Made by a program: the position numbers and the translations under genes. DNA of 43,502 nucleotides from Eubacteriales bacterium (GTDB taxonomy: Bacteria; Bacillota; Clostridia; Oscillospirales; CAG-272), in NCBI GenBank assembly GCA_045129415.1, contig JBGVJM010000050.1, positions 1-43,502 on the forward strand, written 5' to 3'. This document shows, piece by piece, positions 3,129 to 14,397 of this stretch. Within the stretch, counting starts at the first letter, position 1; every line of letters begins with the position of its first letter. The notes below the pieces were generated by a model. It was not told the DNA's origin. It made no database searches and saw only the letters and a list, made by a program, of their open reading frames with translations.

Positions 3129-3166
3129 TATATCAATGTAAGTTCAATAGTTGAGGAATGGGGAAA

Positions 3167-3748
3167 ATGAAAGAAAAAATTCAAAAGGATTATACCAACA
3201 AGGTAATAACCATCCCGAATATCCTGTCCTTTTTCAGACTATGCCTTATCCCTGTCATAGTCTGGCTTTACTGTGTCAAAAAAGAGTATTTTTGGACTAT
3301 CATCGTGTACGGCTTTTCGAGTCTTACTGACATAGTGGACGGCATAATAGCGAGAAAATTCAATATGATAAGCACCTTCGGTAAGGTGTTTGACCCCGTC
3401 GCCGATAAGCTCACGCAAATGGCGATTATAATTTGCCTGGCTATCCATTTCGGGTGGTACATGCTTATCCCGCTTGCCATATTCGTGGTAAAAGAGGTGG
3501 GAATGAACGTTGTCGGACTCGTTGCCGCAAAAAAGACGGGCAAGATAAAGGGTGCTATGTGGCACGGAAAGCTCAACACCGTTTTGTTCTTCGTGATTAT
3601 GGTGGTACACCTTTTGTGGTACAACATGCCTCCCGTGGTTTCTTATGTTTTTGTGAGCATCAGCGTAACCATGATGCTGATCTCGGCAACGATATATACC
3701 GTTGATTACGTCAACATGTTAAAAGAGGCAAAGAATGCCGAAAAATAA
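3167..3748 (+). CDS. CDP-alcohol phosphatidyltransferase (PgsA-like phosphatidylglycerophosphate synthase family)
   Basis: It carries the CDP-OH transferase signature D-x2-DG-x2-AR-x8-G-x3-D-x3-D in TDIVDGIIARKFNMISTFGKVFDPVADK and is multi-TM. The ORF track starts at 3158. I prefer ATG 3167 on SD spacing, though 3158 remains possible. Confidence 0.8.
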   Translation: MKEKIQKDYTNKVITIPNILSFFRLCLIPVIVWLYCVKKEYFWTIIVYGFSSLTDIVDGIIARKFNMISTFGKVFDPVADKLTQMAIIICLAIHFGWYMLIPLAIFVVKEVGMNVVGLVAAKKTGKIKGAMWHGKLNTVLFFVIMVVHLLWYNMPPVVSYVFVSISVTMMLISATIYTVDYVNMLKEAKNAEK

Positions 3749-5748: not shown

Positions 5749-6579
5749 TTATTTGTCGCGGTCCTCAAAAATGGGGATCTCGCCAAGAGAGTGTGCCTTG
5801 TCAAGCTCAGCCTTGCCGCGCGTTGTCCATACAAACGACGGAGCCTTGTAAAGCTTTGCTGAAAGCTTTACGGGCAACGAATTGCGGTCAAGCTTGTTGT
5901 AAGCGATAAAATCGGGCGTTGCCAGGAAGTTAAGCGCCATAAGGCTGATTATGATATTAAGTGCCGAGTGGCTCTTTTTATCTCTGCAAACGTTGGTGTA
6001 AAGCTGACCTCTGAAGGTGTCGGGAAGATATTTCTTTATCTCCTTTATAAGCAGGGGATTGAAGGATTCAACACAAAATTCGCCTTTGTATTCAAGGAGA
6101 ATATCCGCAACCTTCTTGCAAAGAGATACGTCAAAGCTTTCGCCCTTAAGCTCAACGAGAAGGGGAACTCTGCCGTCCACGAGCTTAAGCACGTCCACAA
6201 AGGTGGGGATGGTCTGATCTGTGCCTGAAAGCGAGATCTTTGTAAGCTCCTGTGCGGTAAGCTCGCAAAGCTTTTTATCAACTCCCGTCACGCGATTGAG
6301 AGTATCGTCATGGAAAACCATAACGACGCCGTCGCGTGACAGCTGAACGTCAAGCTCTATTCCAAAGCCACCTTGGCATGCAAGCTCAAATGCCTGCATG
6401 GAGTTTTCGGGAACGCCGTTTCCGTGGAGACCTCTGTGCGCGTAATCGCGAAGAAGGAAGGAGGAGGGCTTTATTTTCTTGCCGGGGCGCACGAGAAAAA
6501 GCGCGTACACAAGGAAAAGCAGTGCGGCTATGCCGAAAATTATTCCGATTATCAAAAGTATTATTTCAATAGGTCCCAT
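5749..6579 (-). CDS. Membrane-anchored glycerophosphodiester phosphodiesterase (GDPD family)
   Basis: An N-terminal TM (IILLIIGIIFGIAALLFLVYALFLV) is followed by AHRGLHG..PENSMQAF, ELDVQLSRDGVVMVFHDDTLNR and LLVELK. Confidence 0.85.
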   Translation of the reverse strand: MGPIEIILLIIGIIFGIAALLFLVYALFLVRPGKKIKPSSFLLRDYAHRGLHGNGVPENSMQAFELACQGGFGIELDVQLSRDGVVMVFHDDTLNRVTGVDKKLCELTAQELTKISLSGTDQTIPTFVDVLKLVDGRVPLLVELKGESFDVSLCKKVADILLEYKGEFCVESFNPLLIKEIKKYLPDTFRGQLYTNVCRDKKSHSALNIIISLMALNFLATPDFIAYNKLDRNSLPVKLSAKLYKAPSFVWTTRGKAELDKAHSLGEIPIFEDRDK

Positions 6580-6580
6580 A

Positions 6581-8077
6581 TCAATCGTCTACGTCAAGGC
6601 TCTCAAGAGCGCTCTTTTTCTGAACGGGCTTTGCATCTCCGTGCTTAACGAAGAACATGGTTACAAAGGAGAGCGCTACGAATACCGTTCCAAAGGAGAA
6701 GAACATTGATCTCATGCCGAATGCATCGTAAAGAACACCGGAGAGAATGGGAGCAACTATCTGAGCCGCCATGGAAGCAGTGTAATAGTAGCCCGTATAT
6801 TTTCCAACCTCGCCGCCCTTTGCAAGCTCAACGACCATGGGGAAGGAGTTTACGTTTATGGTAGCCCAGCCTATTCCCGCGAGAATAAATACGGGATACA
6901 TAAGTATTTCGGGAGTGTCGAAGTTTATAAAGTTTCCGATAAAGAATGCGGAGGCAAGAAGAATTATACCCGTAAGAATGGTCTTTTTTCTTCCTATCTT
7001 GGATGCTATCATACCAACGGGAATGTAAGCAATGATAGCAGCCGCCTGAGCGATGATAAGTGTGAAGTTGAAGTCAAAGAAGAGGACGTTGGTAGCATAA
7101 ACGGAGTATTTGCTTGTTATGGAGTTATATCCGATGTACCAAAGAGCTACGGAAGCGAGAATGAGAATGAGGGAAGCGAATTCACCCTTTGAAAGCTTTC
7201 TCTTTTCTCCGCTATCCTCAACCACGGGCTCTTCAAGACCGAGACGCTTGGTGTCGTCCTCCATCTCCTGCGCCCACTTGCGCTCTCTTACGGTTGCGAG
7301 GAACACGCAAAGTCCGGTTATCATTATAGCGCAAACAGCAACAACGTATCCCGTATACTGCATGTATTTGTTGCCGGAGGTGTTGAATACCATACCGAGA
7401 ACGAGAACGAGAATACCGCCTGCGGTACCCATAAGGTTGATTATAGCGTTACCCTTGGAGCGAAGGGGCTTTACGGTAACGTCGGGCATGAGTGCAACTG
7501 CGGGGGAACGGAAGGTTGCCATGGAGATAAGAACGAGAAGGAGAACGCCAATGAAGGAGATAACGGGCCAGATGTTGCCGAGTGTTATATTCATGGTGTC
7601 AAGTCTTATCTGCTCTATGGTTGCGTTTATTGCATCAATGGACTGTTGAGCTGCGAGAACTGCAGATTGGTCGCCTGCCTTACCTGCCGCCTGGAGAGCC
7701 GCATTTGCTTCCTTGAGGAGCGCGGCTGCCTCCTGATATCTCTCGGCGATACCTGCGTTAAGAACTGCGCCGAGCTGATAGGTGTCGATAAAGGTGAGAG
7801 AAATAAATGCTATAACTGCCGCAATGGTTCCAACAAATATGAAGGGCGTGCGCTTTCCGAATCTTGTCATAACTTTATCGGAGAGCGCTCCGAAGATGGG
7901 CAGCATAAATACTGCCAATACGTTGTCGATGGACATTACCGCGCCCGAAACGGACTGAGGAAGGCCAAAATGGTTGGTGAGGATAAGCGGGATTATCGCG
8001 TCATAAGCCTGCCAGAAGGCAGAAATGAGAAAGAACGCAAAACCCACAAGTATTGTGCGTTTGTAGTTGAGTTTCAT
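6581..8077 (-). CDS. MFS-type transporter (GPH/SLC45-like) with an Ala/Gln-rich insert
   Basis: The 498-aa product has about 12 hydrophobic segments and the motif GALSDKVMTRFGKRTPF (an MFS loop 2-3 motif). Its stop codon is 1 nt from the GDPD start (TGA-T-ATG). Confidence 0.85.
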   Translation of the reverse strand: MKLNYKRTILVGFAFFLISAFWQAYDAIIPLILTNHFGLPQSVSGAVMSIDNVLAVFMLPIFGALSDKVMTRFGKRTPFIFVGTIAAVIAFISLTFIDTYQLGAVLNAGIAERYQEAAALLKEANAALQAAGKAGDQSAVLAAQQSIDAINATIEQIRLDTMNITLGNIWPVISFIGVLLLVLISMATFRSPAVALMPDVTVKPLRSKGNAIINLMGTAGGILVLVLGMVFNTSGNKYMQYTGYVVAVCAIMITGLCVFLATVRERKWAQEMEDDTKRLGLEEPVVEDSGEKRKLSKGEFASLILILASVALWYIGYNSITSKYSVYATNVLFFDFNFTLIIAQAAAIIAYIPVGMIASKIGRKKTILTGIILLASAFFIGNFINFDTPEILMYPVFILAGIGWATINVNSFPMVVELAKGGEVGKYTGYYYTASMAAQIVAPILSGVLYDAFGMRSMFFSFGTVFVALSFVTMFFVKHGDAKPVQKKSALESLDVDD

Positions 8078-8160
8078 AGAAACATCCTTTCAAATATGTA
8101 TTTGGGTGTCGCTGTTACAAGTATAACACAAAAAAAGGCACTTGTAAAGAAAATTTTTAC

Positions 8161-8181
8161 AAAAAAGCTCCCTTGGGGAGC
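8161..8181 (-). terminator. Intrinsic terminator after mazF
   Basis: GCTCCC-TTG-GGGAGC hairpin (8167-8181) followed on the minus strand by TTTTTT. Confidence 0.65.
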
Positions 8182-8202
8182 GACGTCCTCAAGGGAGGTG
8201 AT

Positions 8203-8568
8203 TTATGCTTGTGCGTTCGGGCCGAGCCCACAGCTTATGGCGATAGCTCCGTTGACCTTGTTCATTGCATCGCCGTCCAGGTGTCCCATCTTTTCCTTGA
8301 GCCTGCGCTTGTCAAGAGTGCGTATCTGCTCAAGCAGAACAACGGAATCCTTGGCAAGACCGACTCCCGTTGCGTTGATATCTATATGAGTCGGAAGCTT
8401 TGCCTTGTCCATTCTTGACGTTATGGCGGCGGCAATGACCGTGGGGCTGTACTTGTTTCCAACGTCGTTTTGAATAATAAGTACGGGGCGCAATCCGCCT
8501 TGCTCGCTGCCGACCACGGGACTGAGATCCGCATAAAAAATATCTCCTCGTTTAATTGTCGGTGTCAT
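8203..8568 (-). CDS. mazF: Type II toxin MazF/EndoA (PemK family endoribonuclease)
   Basis: The 121-aa product [51 protein letters not shown]...LPTHIDI...[17 protein letters not shown] is near-collinear with B. subtilis EndoA (recalled from memory). ATG 8568 is preceded by AGGAAAGGAAAA. The in-frame extension to 8730 in the ORF track looks non-coding. Confidence 0.9.
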
Positions 8569-8700
8569 TTTAGGTTTTCCTTTCCTGTTTTTGCATAGCG
8601 CGATGAGGTGCTGCTTATAGTATTGCCGTCGGCAAGACCTTCTTAAACAAAAAAAGAGACGATGCCTCGGCATTTTTATGAAAAAGCGCCGCCCATTAAT

Positions 8701-8730
8701 ATAATATGAAAATACGACACGTATTGACAA
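8701..8730 (-). promoter_or_regulatory. Possible mazF promoter (TTGTCA-N18-TATTAT)
   Basis: Read on the minus strand. It overlaps back-to-back with a + strand TTGACA. Confidence 0.35.
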
Positions 8731-8751: not shown

Positions 8752-8780
8752 TTGACAAACGGATAAAAAAGGAGTATTAT
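8752..8780 (+). promoter_or_regulatory. Putative promoter of the LtaS-like/YidC-TagF operon (TTGACA-N17-TATTAT)
   Basis: TTGACA is at 8752-8757 and TATTAT at 8775-8780. The predicted TSS near 8787 argues against the GTG 8785 start and for ATG 8827. Confidence 0.5.
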
Positions 8781-8826: not shown

Positions 8827-10698
8827 ATGAGCGCAAAAAACAAGAAAAAAAACAAAAAGCCAAACGCTCGCGCGGCGACGGAGGCGGTTGCCTTCAAGCG
8901 CGATGAGGGAAAGAAATATAAAGCAATAAGAAAGATACCTCTTTCGCTGCTTTTGGCATTTACCGCACCGCTTACGGTGTGCTTTTTCGGCCCGTTTGAA
9001 ACTTATTGCGGAAACATGGATGAATTTTTGTTTTCGCTTGGTGATTTCTTTCCGCTTTGCATAGCTGCAGCTGTGGCTATGGCGGTTGTTGTTTTTTCTG
9101 TGTTGATGATACTTAACGGCAGAGCATACGATATAGCAACCGCCCTTATATCCTGGTGCAGTATTATGACATTTTTGCAAAGGCATTATCTCAACTTTGG
9201 CGTGAATTCGCTCGCGGGAGATGGTGTGGGAGAAGCTGAAGCCCCCATAGTTGCGGTTGTTTTAACATCTCTTCTTTGGGCAGTAACGGGTGTTGCGAGT
9301 GTTTTTGCCGCGATATGGTTTAAGAAAAAGAATATAGCGCACTTCTTTGTATCGTGTGCCGTGGTTCTTGTTGTGATACTTGCAACTCAAGCCATTGGTT
9401 TTGTTTCGCTCTCACTCACAACGGACGTTTACGTTCCGGTTACCGACAGAGCTGACAACGAGTCCGACACGGGCGAGCCGAGCGATGCAAATCAGCCATC
9501 CGTGCTGACATACGCAAACCTTAATAAGCTTTCGGGTAAAAAGAACGTTGTGGTCTTCGTTATCGATAGATTTGACGTGAGATATTTTGAGAGCTTGCAA
9601 AAGACCAACCCTGAGTTTTTGGAGGGTCTTGACGGATTCACTTTCTATAACGATTACACGAGTCTCTATTGTAGAACGTATCCCGCTATTGCGTCCATAC
9701 TTACGGACAGGGATAATAATTTTGACAAAACAAGGCTTGATTACTTCAAAGAAATATACACGGACGGCGGTCCAATGAGAAAGCTTCACGGTGAGAGCTA
9801 CGACGTAAACGTATATACTGAAAAATATTACGCTTATGACGATGCAAATTACATGAAGGATTATGTTGGAAATATTTCGGGCACCGACGGATACGAAATC
9901 GTGGCTGGAGAGTTTTTGTCAATTGATATGCTTAGACTGTCGCTGGGAACCTGTCTCCCGCTTCCTCTTAAGGATGCCGTGGGAAGCCTTAGCACTCCCG
10001 ATTTCAATGAGCATGCCGTTTATTTGTCGGACGAGCCCCTGTATGATGCTGATATGAAAAATGTCTACGATTACATAACCAAGGGTGACTTCAAGAAGAC
10101 AGACAGTGAGGGTCAATTAAGCTTCATACACATATTTGGATGTCATACCCCCGTTGTATATGACGAGGAATGGAACGAGATTCCGAAGGGTGACAAAAAG
10201 CAAAGCGATACCACAATGGCGCTCAGACAAAGTCTGACGATCATATATGAGTACATTGAAGAAATGAAGCGCCTCGGCGTATATGAGGATGCAACAATTG
10301 TTATAACGGGCGACCACCCGGCGGCGCTCAGCGACTCCAAACTTATAGGTGAGGCAGGCAAGAGCGACAACGGAACACGCGTTACAGCTATGTTGTTCAA
10401 AAAGGCCGGAGATGCGGGCACTGCTCTAAAAACGAGCACCGCGCAAATTTCTCAGGACGAGCTTTGGAACACGATATACGAATCCGAGGGATTGATACAT
10501 CTTAAGGATGGGCAATCTTTCTTTGACATCTCCGAGGGAGAGGACAGAGTAAGAAGATATTTGTTTGAAAAAAGCGTTACACTTGAGGATGGCTCAAAGG
10601 CTGATGAAATAGTGGAATATAAGATAACGGGAACTGCCAGAAACAGAGAAAACTGGAAGGTGGAGAAGGTAACCGTTATTGGAAAAATATATAAGTAA
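8827..10698 (+). CDS. LtaS-like / sulfatase-superfamily polytopic membrane protein (phosphoglycerol transferase family)
   Basis: The N-terminal ~200 aa contain several TM segments. The extracytoplasmic alkaline-phosphatase-fold part carries VVVFVIDRFD, HIFGCHTP and VITGDHPA metal-ligand style motifs. ATG 8827 has GAGGAG 9 nt upstream. Confidence 0.75.
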   Translation: MSAKNKKKNKKPNARAATEAVAFKRDEGKKYKAIRKIPLSLLLAFTAPLTVCFFGPFETYCGNMDEFLFSLGDFFPLCIAAAVAMAVVVFSVLMILNGRAYDIATALISWCSIMTFLQRHYLNFGVNSLAGDGVGEAEAPIVAVVLTSLLWAVTGVASVFAAIWFKKKNIAHFFVSCAVVLVVILATQAIGFVSLSLTTDVYVPVTDRADNESDTGEPSDANQPSVLTYANLNKLSGKKNVVVFVIDRFDVRYFESLQKTNPEFLEGLDGFTFYNDYTSLYCRTYPAIASILTDRDNNFDKTRLDYFKEIYTDGGPMRKLHGESYDVNVYTEKYYAYDDANYMKDYVGNISGTDGYEIVAGEFLSIDMLRLSLGTCLPLPLKDAVGSLSTPDFNEHAVYLSDEPLYDADMKNVYDYITKGDFKKTDSEGQLSFIHIFGCHTPVVYDEEWNEIPKGDKKQSDTTMALRQSLTIIYEYIEEMKRLGVYEDATIVITGDHPAALSDSKLIGEAGKSDNGTRVTAMLFKKAGDAGTALKTSTAQISQDELWNTIYESEGLIHLKDGQSFFDISEGEDRVRRYLFEKSVTLEDGSKADEIVEYKITGTARNRENWKVEKVTVIGKIYK

Positions 10699-10716
10699 TA
10701 TCATTTGGAGATCACA

Positions 10717-12789
10717 ATGGATCAGATATTGTATTACATCTGCATTCCCTTAGGAGTGCTTATGAAATGGTGCTGGCAGCTTGTGGGCAATTACGGTATA
10801 GCCATATTGCTTTTCACGCTCGCCACGAAAATAGTTCTTTTGCCCATATCGATATGGATACATAAGAACTCCATACTCATGGTCAAGATACAGCCCGAGA
10901 TGAATATGTTAAAGGTCAAGTATCATAACGACCAGCAAACGCTGTCGCAGGAGCAGGCAAAGCTTTTCAAGAGGGCAAAATACCGCCCGATGCTTACGCT
11001 TGTGCCGCTTGTATTGCAGATAGTCCTTTTGCTTGGAGTGGTTTACATAATCAATAGACCTTTAAGCTATCTTTTCGGAGTTTCCGAGGCGGACATATTG
11101 GCTATGGCGGAGGCAGCGGGCGTGAACATGGAAAGCTCGTCCTTCCAGATAGCCTTGGTAGAGGCGATAAGAAACGGCGCTTACACGCTTCCCGAGGGCT
11201 TTGAGTGGCTTTTGGGCTCGGTAAAGAGCTTTGATACCGCGTTTTTGGGCATGGAGCTTACGCTCGTTCCGTCGGTCGTATGGGGAATATACGCTATAAT
11301 CCCGCTGCTTGCGGCGGCATCCTCTTGGCTGTTGTGCTTTGCGCAAAACAGCTCGAACGTGCTTCAACACGAGCAGGGCAAGGGCAACAAGTACGGAACA
11401 ATGATCTTCTCCGTTTTGCTTTCTTTGTATCTCGGTTGCTTTGTGCCTGCGGGTATTGCGCTTTATTGGATGGCGGGAAATATATTCTCGGTCATTCAGC
11501 TTTTGCTTCTCAATCTCACTATAAGCCCCAAGAAATACGTGGATTACGAGGCACTTGAGGCGAGCCGTGCCGAGCTTGAAAAAATAGAGGCGGCGGAGAA
11601 CACCGAGGAGAAAAAGCGCATAGCAAAAGAGAACAAAAAGCGCGAGACCGAGGACTATAAGAGATTTTTCTCCATAGTCAACAAGCATCTTGTAATATAT
11701 TCCGAAAAGAGCGGATTTTATAAGTATTATAAGGGACTTATAGAGGAGCTTCTCGCGGGCTCGGATATGGTGATACACTACGTTACCAACGACCCGAATG
11801 ACGTGATCTTTGAGGTTGCAAAAAAGCAGCCTCGCATCAAGCCATACTACATAGGACTCAAAAAGACGATATCGCTTATGCTCAAGCTTGAGTGCGATAT
11901 GATAGTTATGACCACGCCCGACCTTGAAAAATATTATCTCAAAAAGTCGCGTATGCAAAATGACATAGAGTACGTTTACGCACCCCACGCGCTGATGAGC
12001 ATGCACATGGGCATGAAGGAAGGCTCGCTTGATGCCTTTGACACCATATTCTGCGCGGGCGAGCATATTAAGCGAGAGGTAAAGGCGACCGAGCGCGTTT
12101 ACGGACTTCCCGAAAAGAACTGTGTTGAATTTGGCTATCCGCTTGTTGACGATCTTATCGTTATGGGACAAGAGGAGAGAAAAACTCACAAGACGGGCGG
12201 CAGACGCGAGATTCTGATTGCGCCCACGTGGAACGAGGATAACATTCTTGATTCCTGCATAGACGACCTCTTGAACGGCTTGCTTTGTGACGAATACCAC
12301 GTCACCGTGCGTCCTCACCCCGAGTACGTAAAGAGATACGGAAACCGTATGGATGCCATAGTCGAGCGCTGGCAGGACAAGATCGGAGAAGGACTCACCT
12401 TTGAGCTTGACTTTTCAAGCAACAAGTCAATTTATTCGTCCGATCTTATGATAACGGACTGGTCGGGAATATCCTTTGAGTTCAGCTTTGCAACCAAGAG
12501 ACCTACGCTGTTCATCAACACGAAGATGAAGGTGTTGAATGAGAATTGGCAAAAGATAGAGTGTGAGCCTATTGAAATAACGCTTCGAAACGAGATAGGA
12601 ATTTCTATTGAAAAGAGCGACGTTTCAAAGATCGGCGACATTGCAAAGGACACGTTCTCGCGCTCGCGCGAATATGAGCAAAAGATAGAGAAGGTGCTTT
12701 ACCGCGCGGTCTATAACGTTGGCGGCTCAAATGCCGTCGGAGCAAAATATATACTCCAAAAGCTTGTGGAAAAGCAGAGAAAGAGGTGA
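10717..12789 (+). CDS. Fusion protein: an N-terminal YidC/Oxa1-family insertase domain joined to a C-terminal CDP-glycerol glycerophosphotransferase (TagB/TagF family) domain
   Basis: The frame is uninterrupted. YidC motifs: YGIAILLFTLATKIVLLPISIW, KIQPEMNMLKVKY, PAGIALYWMAGNIFSVIQ. TagF motifs: ILIAPTWNED, VRPHPEY, SDLMITDWSGISFEFSFATKRPTLFI. ATG 10717 has GGAG 6 nt upstream. The track start at 10705 is TTG. Confidence 0.85.
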   Translation: MDQILYYICIPLGVLMKWCWQLVGNYGIAILLFTLATKIVLLPISIWIHKNSILMVKIQPEMNMLKVKYHNDQQTLSQEQAKLFKRAKYRPMLTLVPLVLQIVLLLGVVYIINRPLSYLFGVSEADILAMAEAAGVNMESSSFQIALVEAIRNGAYTLPEGFEWLLGSVKSFDTAFLGMELTLVPSVVWGIYAIIPLLAAASSWLLCFAQNSSNVLQHEQGKGNKYGTMIFSVLLSLYLGCFVPAGIALYWMAGNIFSVIQLLLLNLTISPKKYVDYEALEASRAELEKIEAAENTEEKKRIAKENKKRETEDYKRFFSIVNKHLVIYSEKSGFYKYYKGLIEELLAGSDMVIHYVTNDPNDVIFEVAKKQPRIKPYYIGLKKTISLMLKLECDMIVMTTPDLEKYYLKKSRMQNDIEYVYAPHALMSMHMGMKEGSLDAFDTIFCAGEHIKREVKATERVYGLPEKNCVEFGYPLVDDLIVMGQEERKTHKTGGRREILIAPTWNEDNILDSCIDDLLNGLLCDEYHVTVRPHPEYVKRYGNRMDAIVERWQDKIGEGLTFELDFSSNKSIYSSDLMITDWSGISFEFSFATKRPTLFINTKMKVLNENWQKIECEPIEITLRNEIGISIEKSDVSKIGDIAKDTFSRSREYEQKIEKVLYRAVYNVGGSNAVGAKYILQKLVEKQRKR

Positions 12790-13054: not shown

Positions 13055-13068
13055 TAAAGAAAAAACGA

Positions 13069-13091
13069 AAGCCTGCGTAAAACGCAGGCTT
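13069..13091. terminator. Bidirectional intrinsic terminator
   Basis: AAGCCTGCG-TAAAA-CGCAGGCTT hairpin with A and T flanks, between convergent genes. Confidence 0.75.
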
Positions 13092-13099
13092 TTTATTAT

Positions 13100-13381
13100 T
13101 TATTTGCCCTCGGGAGTAACGCCTCTGTGAGGAAACTCGGAAAAATGGGGATCGCCCATTCTGTTTCTCATTCCGTCGGTGATGCCGTCGACAACGGATT
13201 CGGCTCCGTCAACGATAGAGGACTCCGTTTCTTTTGTTTCAGCCTTTGTTTCGGTGGTGGCTGTGCTTCCCGTACCCGTACCGCCACCGTTTCCTGCGGT
13301 GTTAGCGGTGCAGGATGCAAGAGTCAGAGAGCCTACACACATAACAAGGCACAATGCTATTGCGATAATATTCTTTTTCAT
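13100..13381 (-). CDS. Small lipoprotein (93 aa), Gly/Thr-rich linker
   Basis: MKKNIIAIALCLVMCVGSLTLASC contains the lipobox LASC. The ATG at 13381 is preceded by GGAG. Confidence 0.65.
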   Translation of the reverse strand: MKKNIIAIALCLVMCVGSLTLASCTANTAGNGGGTGTGSTATTETKAETKETESSIVDGAESVVDGITDGMRNRMGDPHFSEFPHRGVTPEGK

Positions 13382-13587
13382 AATACGATGCTCCAACGCC
13401 GCAAAGCGGCGATAAACTTTAGATTTCGGACAGGTCGCCAAGCAAATACTCGCTTTTGGCGGCAATTTATCCGCAATATTAGTATGAGCGAACAAAACTC
13501 AAAAAAACACATATTTTAATGCCAACAAAGGTAATAAAAGTAAAAAGATCCAATAAACTGTTATAAAAAGATTTTTCGGAGGCGGAC

Positions 13588-14397
13588 GTGCGGTGTAAGA
13601 TCTTAGCTTTTGTATTGGCGGCAGTCCTTTTGCTCCGCGGCGGTATGCTTGCGGCGCGCGCGGTCGAGGCGGACGGTGCGGTTGCATTGAGCCTTGAGGG
13701 CGAGGGTGATGAAACGGGCATTAAGGTGACCTTGTACTTGTCGTCGGACAATGGAATATGCGGACTTTTTGCCTCATTGTGTTATGATAGCGAGTCCGTA
13801 GTGCTTACGTCGTGCGGAATCGGAGAGGGCGCCGAGTCTCTTGTGCTTTCATACAACGATAATGAAGGCAGGGTTGACGTTTTGTTGGACGGATATGAAA
13901 ATTGCGCGCCCCGCGGCGCGCTGGTAAGCTTTTATTTCACCGCAAAGGATAGCCAAACGAAAAGCTTTGATTTCTCGCTTGAATTGGCGCAAGAGATCAG
14001 TGTCGCTTGTATTTCGGAGGGCGGCGACGTAATAAACGTAACACCCGATGCTTCGGGGTGCGCCACGACCGTCTTTTGCGACGCTCCGTCAAGTCAGGAT
14101 CCACCGTCGACGCTCGTTGGAATACATGCGAAAAGGGAAAACGGGAAAATGAAAATCGTTTTAACGGCAAGAAGCGCACCCTCACTCCTTGCGATAGGTT
14201 TTAAGCTTTTTGTGGTGGATACCGTTACGGCGAGGACACAAACGGTGCTCGTTGTTGCCGTAACCGACGGCGATGCGGTGAATTTGTGCGCCGAGCTTAC
14301 GGATATAAGCGGTGGTGTGTGCGTTATAGTCACCCCCACAATTTACAGCGGACGCACGGTGTCGGAAGGGCAAAAGAGCATATACGTATTTTGGTAA
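13588..14397 (+). CDS. Secreted hypothetical protein, beta-rich, possibly a cohesin-like fold
   Basis: The GTG start lies 5 nt after GGAGG. A signal-peptide-like N-terminus (ILAFVLAAVLLLRGGMLAARA) is present. VTLYLSSDNGICGLFASLCYDSESVVL resembles the cohesin core pattern, but this is only a weak inference. Confidence 0.5.
   Translation: MRCKILAFVLAAVLLLRGGMLAARAVEADGAVALSLEGEGDETGIKVTLYLSSDNGICGLFASLCYDSESVVLTSCGIGEGAESLVLSYNDNEGRVDVLLDGYENCAPRGALVSFYFTAKDSQTKSFDFSLELAQEISVACISEGGDVINVTPDASGCATTVFCDAPSSQDPPSTLVGIHAKRENGKMKIVLTARSAPSLLAIGFKLFVVDTVTARTQTVLVVAVTDGDAVNLCAELTDISGGVCVIVTPTIYSGRTVSEGQKSIYVFW

Follow-up and report, generated by a model that had tools for sequence, protein, structure and literature searches.

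The DNA analysed here, called the window throughout, is a bacterial chromosomal contig of 43,502 nucleotides from a Eubacteriales bacterium (Clostridia, lineage CAG-272; assembly GCA_045129415.1, contig JBGVJM010000050.1). It contains three tightly spaced genes on the forward strand, with a promoter-like site ahead of them and a terminator-like hairpin behind (Table 1). The second of them encodes a protein in which a YidC/Oxa1 insertase core continues by way of a charged linker into a TagF-like phosphotransferase domain; the first encodes a membrane protein resembling LtaS and EptA, and the third a small membrane protein termed YIDP.

Table 1. Features of the three-gene module in the window and the evidence for each assignment (AF2, AlphaFold2; GT-B, glycosyltransferase B).
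Feature	Coordinates	Strand	Evidence
Promoter-like site (TTGACA, 17 nt spacer, TATTAT)	8752..8780	+	consensus match only (11/12)
Gene 1, LtaS/EptA/PbgA-type membrane phosphotransferase-like protein, 623 residues	8827..10698	+	Pfam Sulfatase, AF2 model, Foldseek
Gene 2, YidC-TagF-like fusion protein, 690 residues	10717..12789	+	Pfam and NCBIfam profiles, conservation, AF2 model
Gene 2, YidC/Oxa1 core (residues 1-268)	10717..11520	+	profiles, alignments, hydropathy, AF2 model
Gene 2, charged helical linker (residues 269-320)	11521..11676	+	AF2 model, two predicted helices (277-294, 297-319)
Gene 2, TagF-like GT-B phosphotransferase domain (residues 321-690)	11677..12786	+	Pfam, Foldseek, profile, hhalign
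Gene 3, small single-pass membrane "YIDP" protein, 85 residues	12797..13054	+	conserved open reading frame
Hairpin resembling a bidirectional terminator (12 pairs followed by a T run), directly behind gene 3	13067..13093	.	consensus match only

As proposed in a preliminary description of this DNA, the fusion is encoded by one uninterrupted open reading frame (ORF), which is free of stops throughout whether it is taken from position 10705 or from the ATG at 10717, the latter having a Shine-Dalgarno sequence (GGAGA) 8 nt upstream and giving the product of 690 residues. Every YidC and TagF-type motif quoted in that description is present, and both domains score above the curated cut-offs of their profiles. 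Pfam 60KD_IMP (PF02096) matches residues 26-266 with E=4.6e-29 and 101.9 bits (cut-off 35), Glyphos_transf (PF04464) matches residues 349-601 with E=3.4e-14 and 53 bits (cut-off 22.1) over profile positions 42-293 of 367, and NCBIfam TIGR03592 (yidC_oxa1_cterm) reaches 99.7 bits (cut-off 84.3). The AF2 model of the whole protein has a mean predicted local distance difference test score (pLDDT) of 88.3 and a predicted template modelling score (pTM) of 0.68. Both Pfam domains recur in all of the 120 best protein clusters drawn from NCBI, ENA, JGI and Logan assemblies, which are about 690-704 residues long at 100 % to 61 % identity, and an exhaustive search of 50 %-identity representatives added around 45 clusters that likewise contain both parts, the most distant at 36 % identity. 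Scanning one genome per species with a 10-sequence subset of an alignment of 26 diverse fusions revealed a relative in at least 585 genomes. In the best 80 of these, residues 1-690 are all matched at 52-81 % identity, and all 80 are metagenome-assembled genomes (MAGs) of uncultured gut Clostridia, with labels that include Oscillospiraceae, Christensenellaceae, Candidatus Scatosoma and Clostridium sp. CAG:448 and hosts that include sheep, deer, yak, rabbit, horse and human. A hidden frameshift or misassembly is thereby ruled out as the origin of the fusion, its architecture having been retained in over 120 clusters and no fewer than 80 genomes. At NCBI its relatives carry the plain name "membrane protein insertase YidC". 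A 418-residue antisense ORF (11062..12318, reverse strand), rich in Arg, Leu and Lys, lies wholly within the fusion gene; it is almost certainly not a real gene. Antisense ORFs of this kind led a simple greedy gene caller astray in several loci.

Hydropathy and the AF2 model both give the YidC part the five-transmembrane (TM) core of the family, in which TM1 and TM2 are joined by a helical hairpin in the cytoplasm. The elements follow one another as N-terminal amphipathic helix, TM1, hairpin, TM2, extracellular insertion and TM3-TM5, with modelled helices at residues 26-40, 42-68, 73-87, 91-113, 190-213, 222-242 and 245-268, and the variable insertion between TM2 and TM3 takes up 64 residues (113-176). 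In alignments to solved YidC structures, the PAGIALYWMAGNIF stretch falls on the TM5 motif (YW..GN), and Lys38 (codon 10828-10830) falls on R366 of E. coli YidC and R72 of B. halodurans YidC. The earlier remark that a Lys stands where YidC has its groove Arg is thereby borne out, the groove residue being K38 and not K39. When residue conservation was counted across the 26 diverse fusions, position 38 was found to be Lys in 23 and Arg in 3, while W251 and N255 are kept in every sequence, Q101 in 25 and Q210 in 24. By mean pairwise identity TM1 is the best conserved segment (50 %), ahead of the two halves of the TagF-like domain (45-47 %), the linker (35 %) and the extracellular insertion (26 %). 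Since TM1 and the groove residues are best conserved, the YidC part does not look like a decayed anchor, and the pattern argues that the groove is under selection.

This conservation bears directly on the idea that the YidC module is a membrane anchor only, placing a normally peripheral TagF-like enzyme beside its partner. TagF-like enzymes associate with membranes through amphipathic helices (PMC10901376) and the stand-alone relatives described below work without YidC, as such a role would allow. However, a five-helix insertase fold would be an expensive anchor, the bilayer residues found conserved (Lys or Arg at position 38 in all 26 fusions, together with Q101, Q210, W251 and N255) are relevant only to the groove, and TM1 is conserved beyond the enzyme domain, so that we consider an anchor alone improbable.

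A hidden Markov model (HMM) of the fusion's YidC part gave one extra match across the related loci, a canonical yidC (L043:19-1859) that shares a contig with the module in a rabbit-gut MAG, L043, and lies about 8 kb upstream of that module. Its product matches PF02096, ends in a Lys-rich C-terminal tail and is only about 26 % identical to the YidC domain of the fusion, and jag (Jag_N, KH and R3H domains) follows directly. A stand-alone yidC, which the preliminary description had named as something to look for, is hence present in one related MAG, and as this canonical yidC-jag pair coexists with the fusion, the latter is a specialised paralogue in L043. The linker and enzyme of the fusion occupy the position of the Lys-rich tail; the earlier placement of the linker where other family members carry their ribosome-binding tail therefore stands in so far as the canonical L043 protein keeps its Lys-rich tail there. 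Because the canonical L043 YidC has a long TM2-TM3 insertion like that of the fusion core, the fusion may derive from a duplication of the lineage's own YidC. In contrast, it is very improbable indeed that the fusion is the housekeeping YidC of its organism with an accessory domain, as public annotation implies. The NCBI name and a core above the TIGR03592 cut-off speak for this, yet the cut-off is barely passed, the rnpA-yidC-jag context is absent for the fusion among the window ORFs scanned and in 86 related loci, and L043 holds a separate yidC-jag pair whose product has the Lys-rich tail and a distant YidC domain.

The TagF-like domain adopts a two-Rossmann GT-B fold in the AF2 model. Foldseek ranked TagF first for this part (3l7k/3l7l, E ~1e-11), followed by 8qoy, 8a0c and 8va1, these lower matches being the TagF-like capsule enzymes Cps3D and Bcs3 as well as TarL. 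Neither phmmer with the whole TagF part nor a profile of its N-terminal subdomain found a match in the PDB; a family profile of the domain reached TarL at E=1.2e-7, and hhalign against canonical TarL/TagF-like proteins, which were taken from plasmids, gave a probability of 97.2 % and E=4.2e-11 at 19 % identity. In the hhalign alignment H424 (codon 11986-11988) falls on H300 of TarL and H534 (codon 12316-12318) on H433, the second pairing being found in the family-profile alignment as well, and the motifs APTW, RPHP and TDWS align with APTF, KMHP and SDYS of TarL/TagF. Both histidines are invariant in the 26 fusions and in 25 stand-alone relatives. In the characterised enzymes the catalytic histidines are H444 and H584 of TagF and H300 and H433 of TarL, with H300 acting as the catalytic base in TarL (PMC10901376). 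Since the fold and both invariant histidines match TagF/TarL, the domain is very probably an active phosphotransferase that releases cytidine monophosphate (CMP). Polymerases of the family are marked by an additional N-terminal domain (PMC10901376), which the fusion's domain lacks. By its sequence the domain thus forms a divergent subfamily, and the preliminary label of a poly(glycerol-phosphate), or poly(GroP), transferase is not supported, given this divergence, the lack of a phmmer match in the PDB and the missing polymerase domain; neither is the label of a polymerase. Each part of the fusion, judged on sequence, belongs to a known superfamily and bears the features that define YidC and TagF-like proteins save for the genomic context of each.

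The two operon partners of the fusion are not mentioned in the preliminary description. Gene 1 lies immediately upstream of the fusion gene on the same strand in 71 of the 75 related loci that have an upstream gene and gene 3 directly downstream in about 78-82 of 86, and the genes around this three-gene module differ between lineages. The ATG of gene 1 at 8827 is preceded by a Shine-Dalgarno sequence (GAGGAG). Its product matches Pfam Sulfatase (PF00884) with E=2.5e-8 and 34 bits (cut-off 25) and gave no LtaS or EptA equivalog match in NCBIfam; relatives at NCBI are named "LTA synthase family protein". In the AF2 model (pLDDT 84.5), five N-terminal TM helices are followed by an alkaline-phosphatase-superfamily fold, for which Foldseek returned sulfatases, PbgA over its full length and LtaS, an assignment at superfamily level only as the search cannot separate sulfatases from LtaS/PbgA. 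The residues D247, T284 (codon 9676-9678), H440 and D496-H497 are invariant, and the sulfatase motif CxPxR is absent. T284 stands at the N-terminus of the helix following strand 271-278 and, by conservation and model, would occupy the nucleophile position. The catalytic domain is predicted to be extracellular, as in LtaS and PbgA, because there are five TM helices and the Lys-rich N-terminus and a KKK loop are placed inside. The TagF domain is predicted to be cytoplasmic since it follows TM5 of YidC, in agreement with the earlier expectation that a cytoplasmic TagF domain behind a complete YidC core would fit the topology. These topologies were derived from AF2 helices and the positive-inside pattern, Kyte-Doolittle TM counts being ambiguous for long fusions.

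The YIDP protein starts with MYIDPTAITTS, followed by its TM segment, and features a conserved Y-[ILV]-D-P motif; no Pfam or NCBIfam family matched it. It is an N-out, single-span protein without a signal peptide and has an acidic residue in its short N-tail. Its C-terminal tail comes in two variants, as most lineages (e.g. L003:12168-12386) have RKAKKK and then HIDENANKEVEEELVI, and the window lineage has a longer tail ending in VVENGGKSVEQNITL. The core E-N-x-x-K-x-V-E is common to both variants and suggests a conserved cytoplasmic contact.

In some relatives gene 1 and the YidC-TagF gene form one reading frame. These Rosetta-stone fusions have the order Sulfatase-YidC-TagF in P0124, P0133 and P0150 and the reverse order YidC-TagF-Sulfatase in P0125, P0139 and P0130; P0125 and P0133 were each found in independent assemblies, P0124 and P0139 are singletons. 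All are topologically consistent, with the alkaline-phosphatase-superfamily domain outside and the TagF domain inside. As gene 1 is fused to YidC-TagF in both orders, the sequences are strong evidence that the two proteins work as one machine, and since the LtaS-like partner faces outward, the architecture appears to be one of synthesis coupled to export.

Such a machine could be explained differently if the YidC domain were a dedicated insertase or assembly chaperone for the five-TM LtaS-like enzyme and YIDP, with only protein passing through the groove and the TagF-like enzyme fused for co-assembly. The family is known to insert proteins, the fusion retains every YidC hallmark including the groove charge, and YIDP has the classic look of a YidC-only substrate, being N-out, single-span and free of a signal peptide, with an acidic N-tail. 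A fusion of signal peptidase I (Peptidase_S26) to YidC-TagF exists as well. This explanation nevertheless appears unlikely to us, as at least one such genome has a housekeeping YidC as well and a stoichiometric covalent fusion to an enzyme, sometimes to the LtaS-like one too, would be odd for a turnover catalyst. The signal peptidase fusion itself, P0134 (861 residues; two cluster members, four contigs), is topologically consistent and could be a local gene-fusion accident.

Clues to the donor were obtained from gene neighbourhoods. Of the gut loci, 51 have 6 kb or more of downstream sequence, and in 15-18 of these the operon continues with an ABC importer and a cytidylyltransferase. The best families for the importer are PhnS2 (E=1.6e-48) and PhnU2 (E=1.6e-107), both below their equivalog cut-offs, which are putative components of a 2-aminoethylphosphonate (2-AEP) transporter. 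The cytidylyltransferase, a nucleotidyltransferase with a winged helix-turn-helix part, matches LicC of S. pneumoniae over its full length (PDB 1jyk, E=3.2e-28), with the PntC-type 6pd1 next. No kinase gene was found in L003, the only locus for which the full gene list was examined. Other recurrent neighbours in the gut loci were dismissed as lineage-specific housekeeping genes or antisense ORF artefacts.

Among the stand-alone TagF-like relatives sampled, the closest are about 380-400 residues long and 31-35 % identical (E ~1e-55 to 1e-66). Their context was sampled in 80 marine metagenome loci (L086-L165) around one stand-alone protein, where a nucleotidyltransferase stands at position +1 in 37 of 69 and a TM-sulfatase occurs in 30 of 80. 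Genes for a thiamine pyrophosphate (TPP) enzyme resembling phosphonopyruvate decarboxylase (Ppd-like) and for an Fe-alcohol dehydrogenase are also neighbours, and a further neighbour protein matches methylphosphonate synthase (PDB 6b9s) with E=5.8e-176. An example of such a cluster is L096:4437-5819, and TauD-like and Asn-synthase-like proteins are found among the neighbours too; here the stand-alone TagF-like protein is a candidate transferase that would esterify methylphosphonate onto a macromolecule. One stand-alone relative, P0202 (397 residues, JGI/IMG), has no YidC part and yet is named "YidC/Oxa1 family membrane protein insertase", a name probably transferred from fusion proteins. Taken jointly, the gut and marine associations, which are independent of each other, suggest that the subfamily transfers phospho(no)-alcohols activated with CMP or cytidine diphosphate (CDP), for example 2-AEP, methylphosphonate or phosphocholine. 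CDP-glycerol is still a possible donor in the window, because the importer and cytidylyltransferase genes are not adjacent to the module there.

The same associations weaken the poly(GroP) assignment of the preliminary description, which had a true CDP-glycerol polymerase export its lipid-linked polymer through or alongside the YidC groove in place of TagGH. The PF04464 match, the TagF-like fold and both catalytic histidines would suit such an enzyme, as would the glycerophosphodiester phosphodiesterase and major facilitator superfamily (MFS) genes nearby in the window and the lack of TagGH-type genes among the window ORFs scanned. When the larger ORFs of the window were scanned with Pfam, no tagD-, tagGH- or tagO-type family was detected, several smaller or overlapping ORFs being unscanned; the earlier statement that tagGH, tagD and tagO are missing consequently holds for the larger ORFs and is not fully established for the window as a whole. 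No tagA/tagB-type gene occurs among the window ORFs scanned either, and none of tagD/tarI, tagO, tagA/B or tagGH is among the recurrent neighbours of the 86 related loci. Canonical TagF-like genes adjoin the cytidylyltransferase that makes their donor (tarI or tagD), and the methylphosphonate-synthase clusters, the 2-AEP-type importer and the LicC/PntC-like cytidylyltransferase found around the present subfamily favour donors of another type. Furthermore, the domain is far from characterised TagF/TarL by both phmmer and hhalign and lacks the N-terminal domain typical of polymerases (PMC10901376), and a long polyanionic chain would fit poorly in a groove closed on its outer side. A poly(GroP) polymerase at this locus is, in our judgement, distinctly improbable.

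We therefore tentatively propose, as a possibility short of an even chance, that the fusion acts as the central subunit of a machine encoded by the three genes and dedicated to modifying the envelope, serving a three-compartment pathway of phospho(no)-group decoration. In the cytoplasm, the TagF-like domain would take a CMP- or CDP-activated phospho(no)-alcohol, in many relatives probably CMP-2-AEP or a similar compound, and place the group onto a membrane-anchored carrier with release of CMP; this carrier may be a lipid or the small YIDP protein. In the membrane, the conserved hydrophilic groove of the specialised YidC paralogue would carry the charged head group or tail across to the outer side, and outside, the LtaS/EptA-like enzyme would deliver the group via its putative Thr nucleophile to the final cell-surface acceptor. 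For enzymes of the LtaS/EptA class (LtaS, EptA, OpgB, GacH and PptA) the source of the phospho-alcohol is an outer-leaflet lipid, which gives a YidC step its rationale. A short acidic N-tail as found in YIDP is the kind of segment that is translocated by YidC. E. coli YidC was shown to scramble glycerophospholipids in vitro and B. subtilis MisCB in silico (PMC11047089). The more specific proposal that an Oxa1-family paralogue was recruited beyond general insertion, either to flip a lipid-linked head group or to translocate a cytoplasmically modified YIDP N-tail as peptide carrier, is more doubtful, and we regard it as rather unlikely. The earlier idea of a handover through the groove keeps its ground in one respect, namely that YidC appears to be more than an anchor, with TM1 and its groove Lys best conserved and an outward LtaS-like partner fused to it.

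Several observations weigh against this envelope-modification proposal. Transport of a non-protein substrate in vivo is not known for any YidC. In the window and its closest relatives the module has no importer or cytidylyltransferase gene beside it, and the marine stand-alone systems have no YidC-like neighbour, so that YidC is not intrinsic to the chemistry. BLAST of gene 1 against the marine TM-sulfatases gave no similarity; they have only superfamily and architecture in common, and we do not claim orthology of the gut and marine proteins. The signal peptidase I-YidC-TagF fusion P0134 hints at a role in protein biogenesis. Lastly, scramblase activity of YidC is known only in vitro and in silico (PMC11047089).

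The window has a GC content of about 48 % and includes the housekeeping genes ychF, truB, cysS, priA, fmt, rsmB and rlmN. Genes beside the operon (5749..8730, reverse strand, and 3158..3748, forward strand) could have a bearing on glycerophosphate or lipid supply. They comprise a PemK/MazF-like toxin, an MFS transporter and a glycerophosphodiester phosphodiesterase (GDPD), which are divergent from the operon, as well as a CDP-alcohol phosphatidyltransferase (pgsA-like) and an acyl-ACP thioesterase near it. This arrangement is the same in the near-identical contigs L001 and L002, and the toxin is also found upstream in a few other close relatives. The operon is closely followed by the gene of a small putative lipoprotein (13100..13495, reverse strand) with an internal lipobox-like signal, MKKNIIAIALCLVMCVGSLTLASC, and then by a 269-residue ORF without a Pfam family (13588..14397, forward strand), both conserved in L001 and L002. 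Between cysS and a yicC-like gene, a small membrane protein of the GtrA/DPMS type (PF04138; 24530..25060, forward strand) is encoded, a family that has been linked to the flipping of lipid-linked sugars.

In literature searches we found no description of the YidC-TagF combination, the conserved operon, the triple fusions or the link to phosphonate and LicC-type activation. The role generally ascribed to YidC/Oxa1 proteins is protein insertion, and their lipid scrambling is a recent finding made only in vitro (PMC11047089). If the more specific proposal on the groove holds in either version, it would give a physiological role to this scramblase activity and represent the first natural Oxa1-family groove serving envelope-polymer or lipid export. 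The fusion with its LtaS-like linkage offers a testable case of an insertase fold that would export an envelope building block. In surface tailoring with phosphonate and phosphocholine, where the steps after cytidylyl activation were described as enigmatic by Rice et al. (PMC6697681), the TagF-like subfamily is a candidate for the transferase that is still missing. It also occurs in marine methylphosphonate-synthase clusters, which bear on oceanic methane. The module is found in many uncultured Clostridia of the herbivore and human gut whose cell envelopes are essentially unstudied, and public annotation is misleading here, as it hides the module under "YidC" and mislabels at least one stand-alone TagF-like relative as a YidC insertase.

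Compared with known systems, the enzyme part resembles the CDP-polyol phosphotransferases TagF, TarL and TagB (PF04464; PDB 3L7K, 8VA1) in its GT-B fold, catalytic histidines and motifs and in its predicted action at the cytoplasmic membrane face. It differs from them by a profile-level identity of only about 19 %, by the lack of the polymerase N-terminal domain and by its fusion to a YidC core, and instead of tagD, tagO and tagGH the subfamily is accompanied by LicC/PntC-like cytidylyltransferases, 2-AEP-type importers and phosphonate biosynthesis. The YidC part shares the five-TM core, the hairpin, the positive charge in TM1 and the YW..GN motif of TM5 with YidC2/SpoIIIJ-type insertases of Firmicutes (PDB 3WO6/3WO7; TIGR03592), whereas a groove Lys in place of Arg, the 64-residue TM2-TM3 insertion, a linker and enzyme at the position of the C-tail, an operon of envelope enzymes instead of jag/rnpA and its status as a second copy in L043 set it apart. 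Gene 1 is similar to LtaS, GacH, EptA, PptA and OpgB, enzymes by which a lipid-borne phospho-alcohol is transferred to an acceptor outside the cell, in having five TM helices and a predicted extracellular alkaline-phosphatase-superfamily domain; it has an invariant Thr that would be the nucleophile and a putative GDH metal motif. Similarity is weak, however (34 bits in Pfam), and gene 1 is tied to YidC-TagF genetically and sometimes covalently, a link that is not known for LtaS or EptA.

At the level of the pathway, the gut loci are comparable to the Lic (LicB/LicA/LicC/LicD) and Pnt (PntC) systems for surface decoration with phosphocholine and 2-AEP (PMC6697681), with an importer and a LicC/PntC-like enzyme present in a third of them. 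The logic would be the same, namely import or synthesis, activation with cytidine triphosphate (CTP) and transfer to a surface polymer. A LicD-type transferase was not seen, and its role would be filled by the TagF-like domain; the gut module adds the YidC and LtaS-like steps, while the importer and LicC-like genes do not lie beside the module of the window. In the three-component systems of lipid-carrier modification GtrB/GtrA/GtrC and CsbB/GtcA/YfhO, the carrier is loaded by a transferase in the cytoplasm and flipped by a small membrane protein, after which a second transferase, facing outward, makes the delivery. By analogy, the machine proposed here would follow the same three-compartment logic with entirely different protein families and a phospho(no)-alcohol in place of a sugar.

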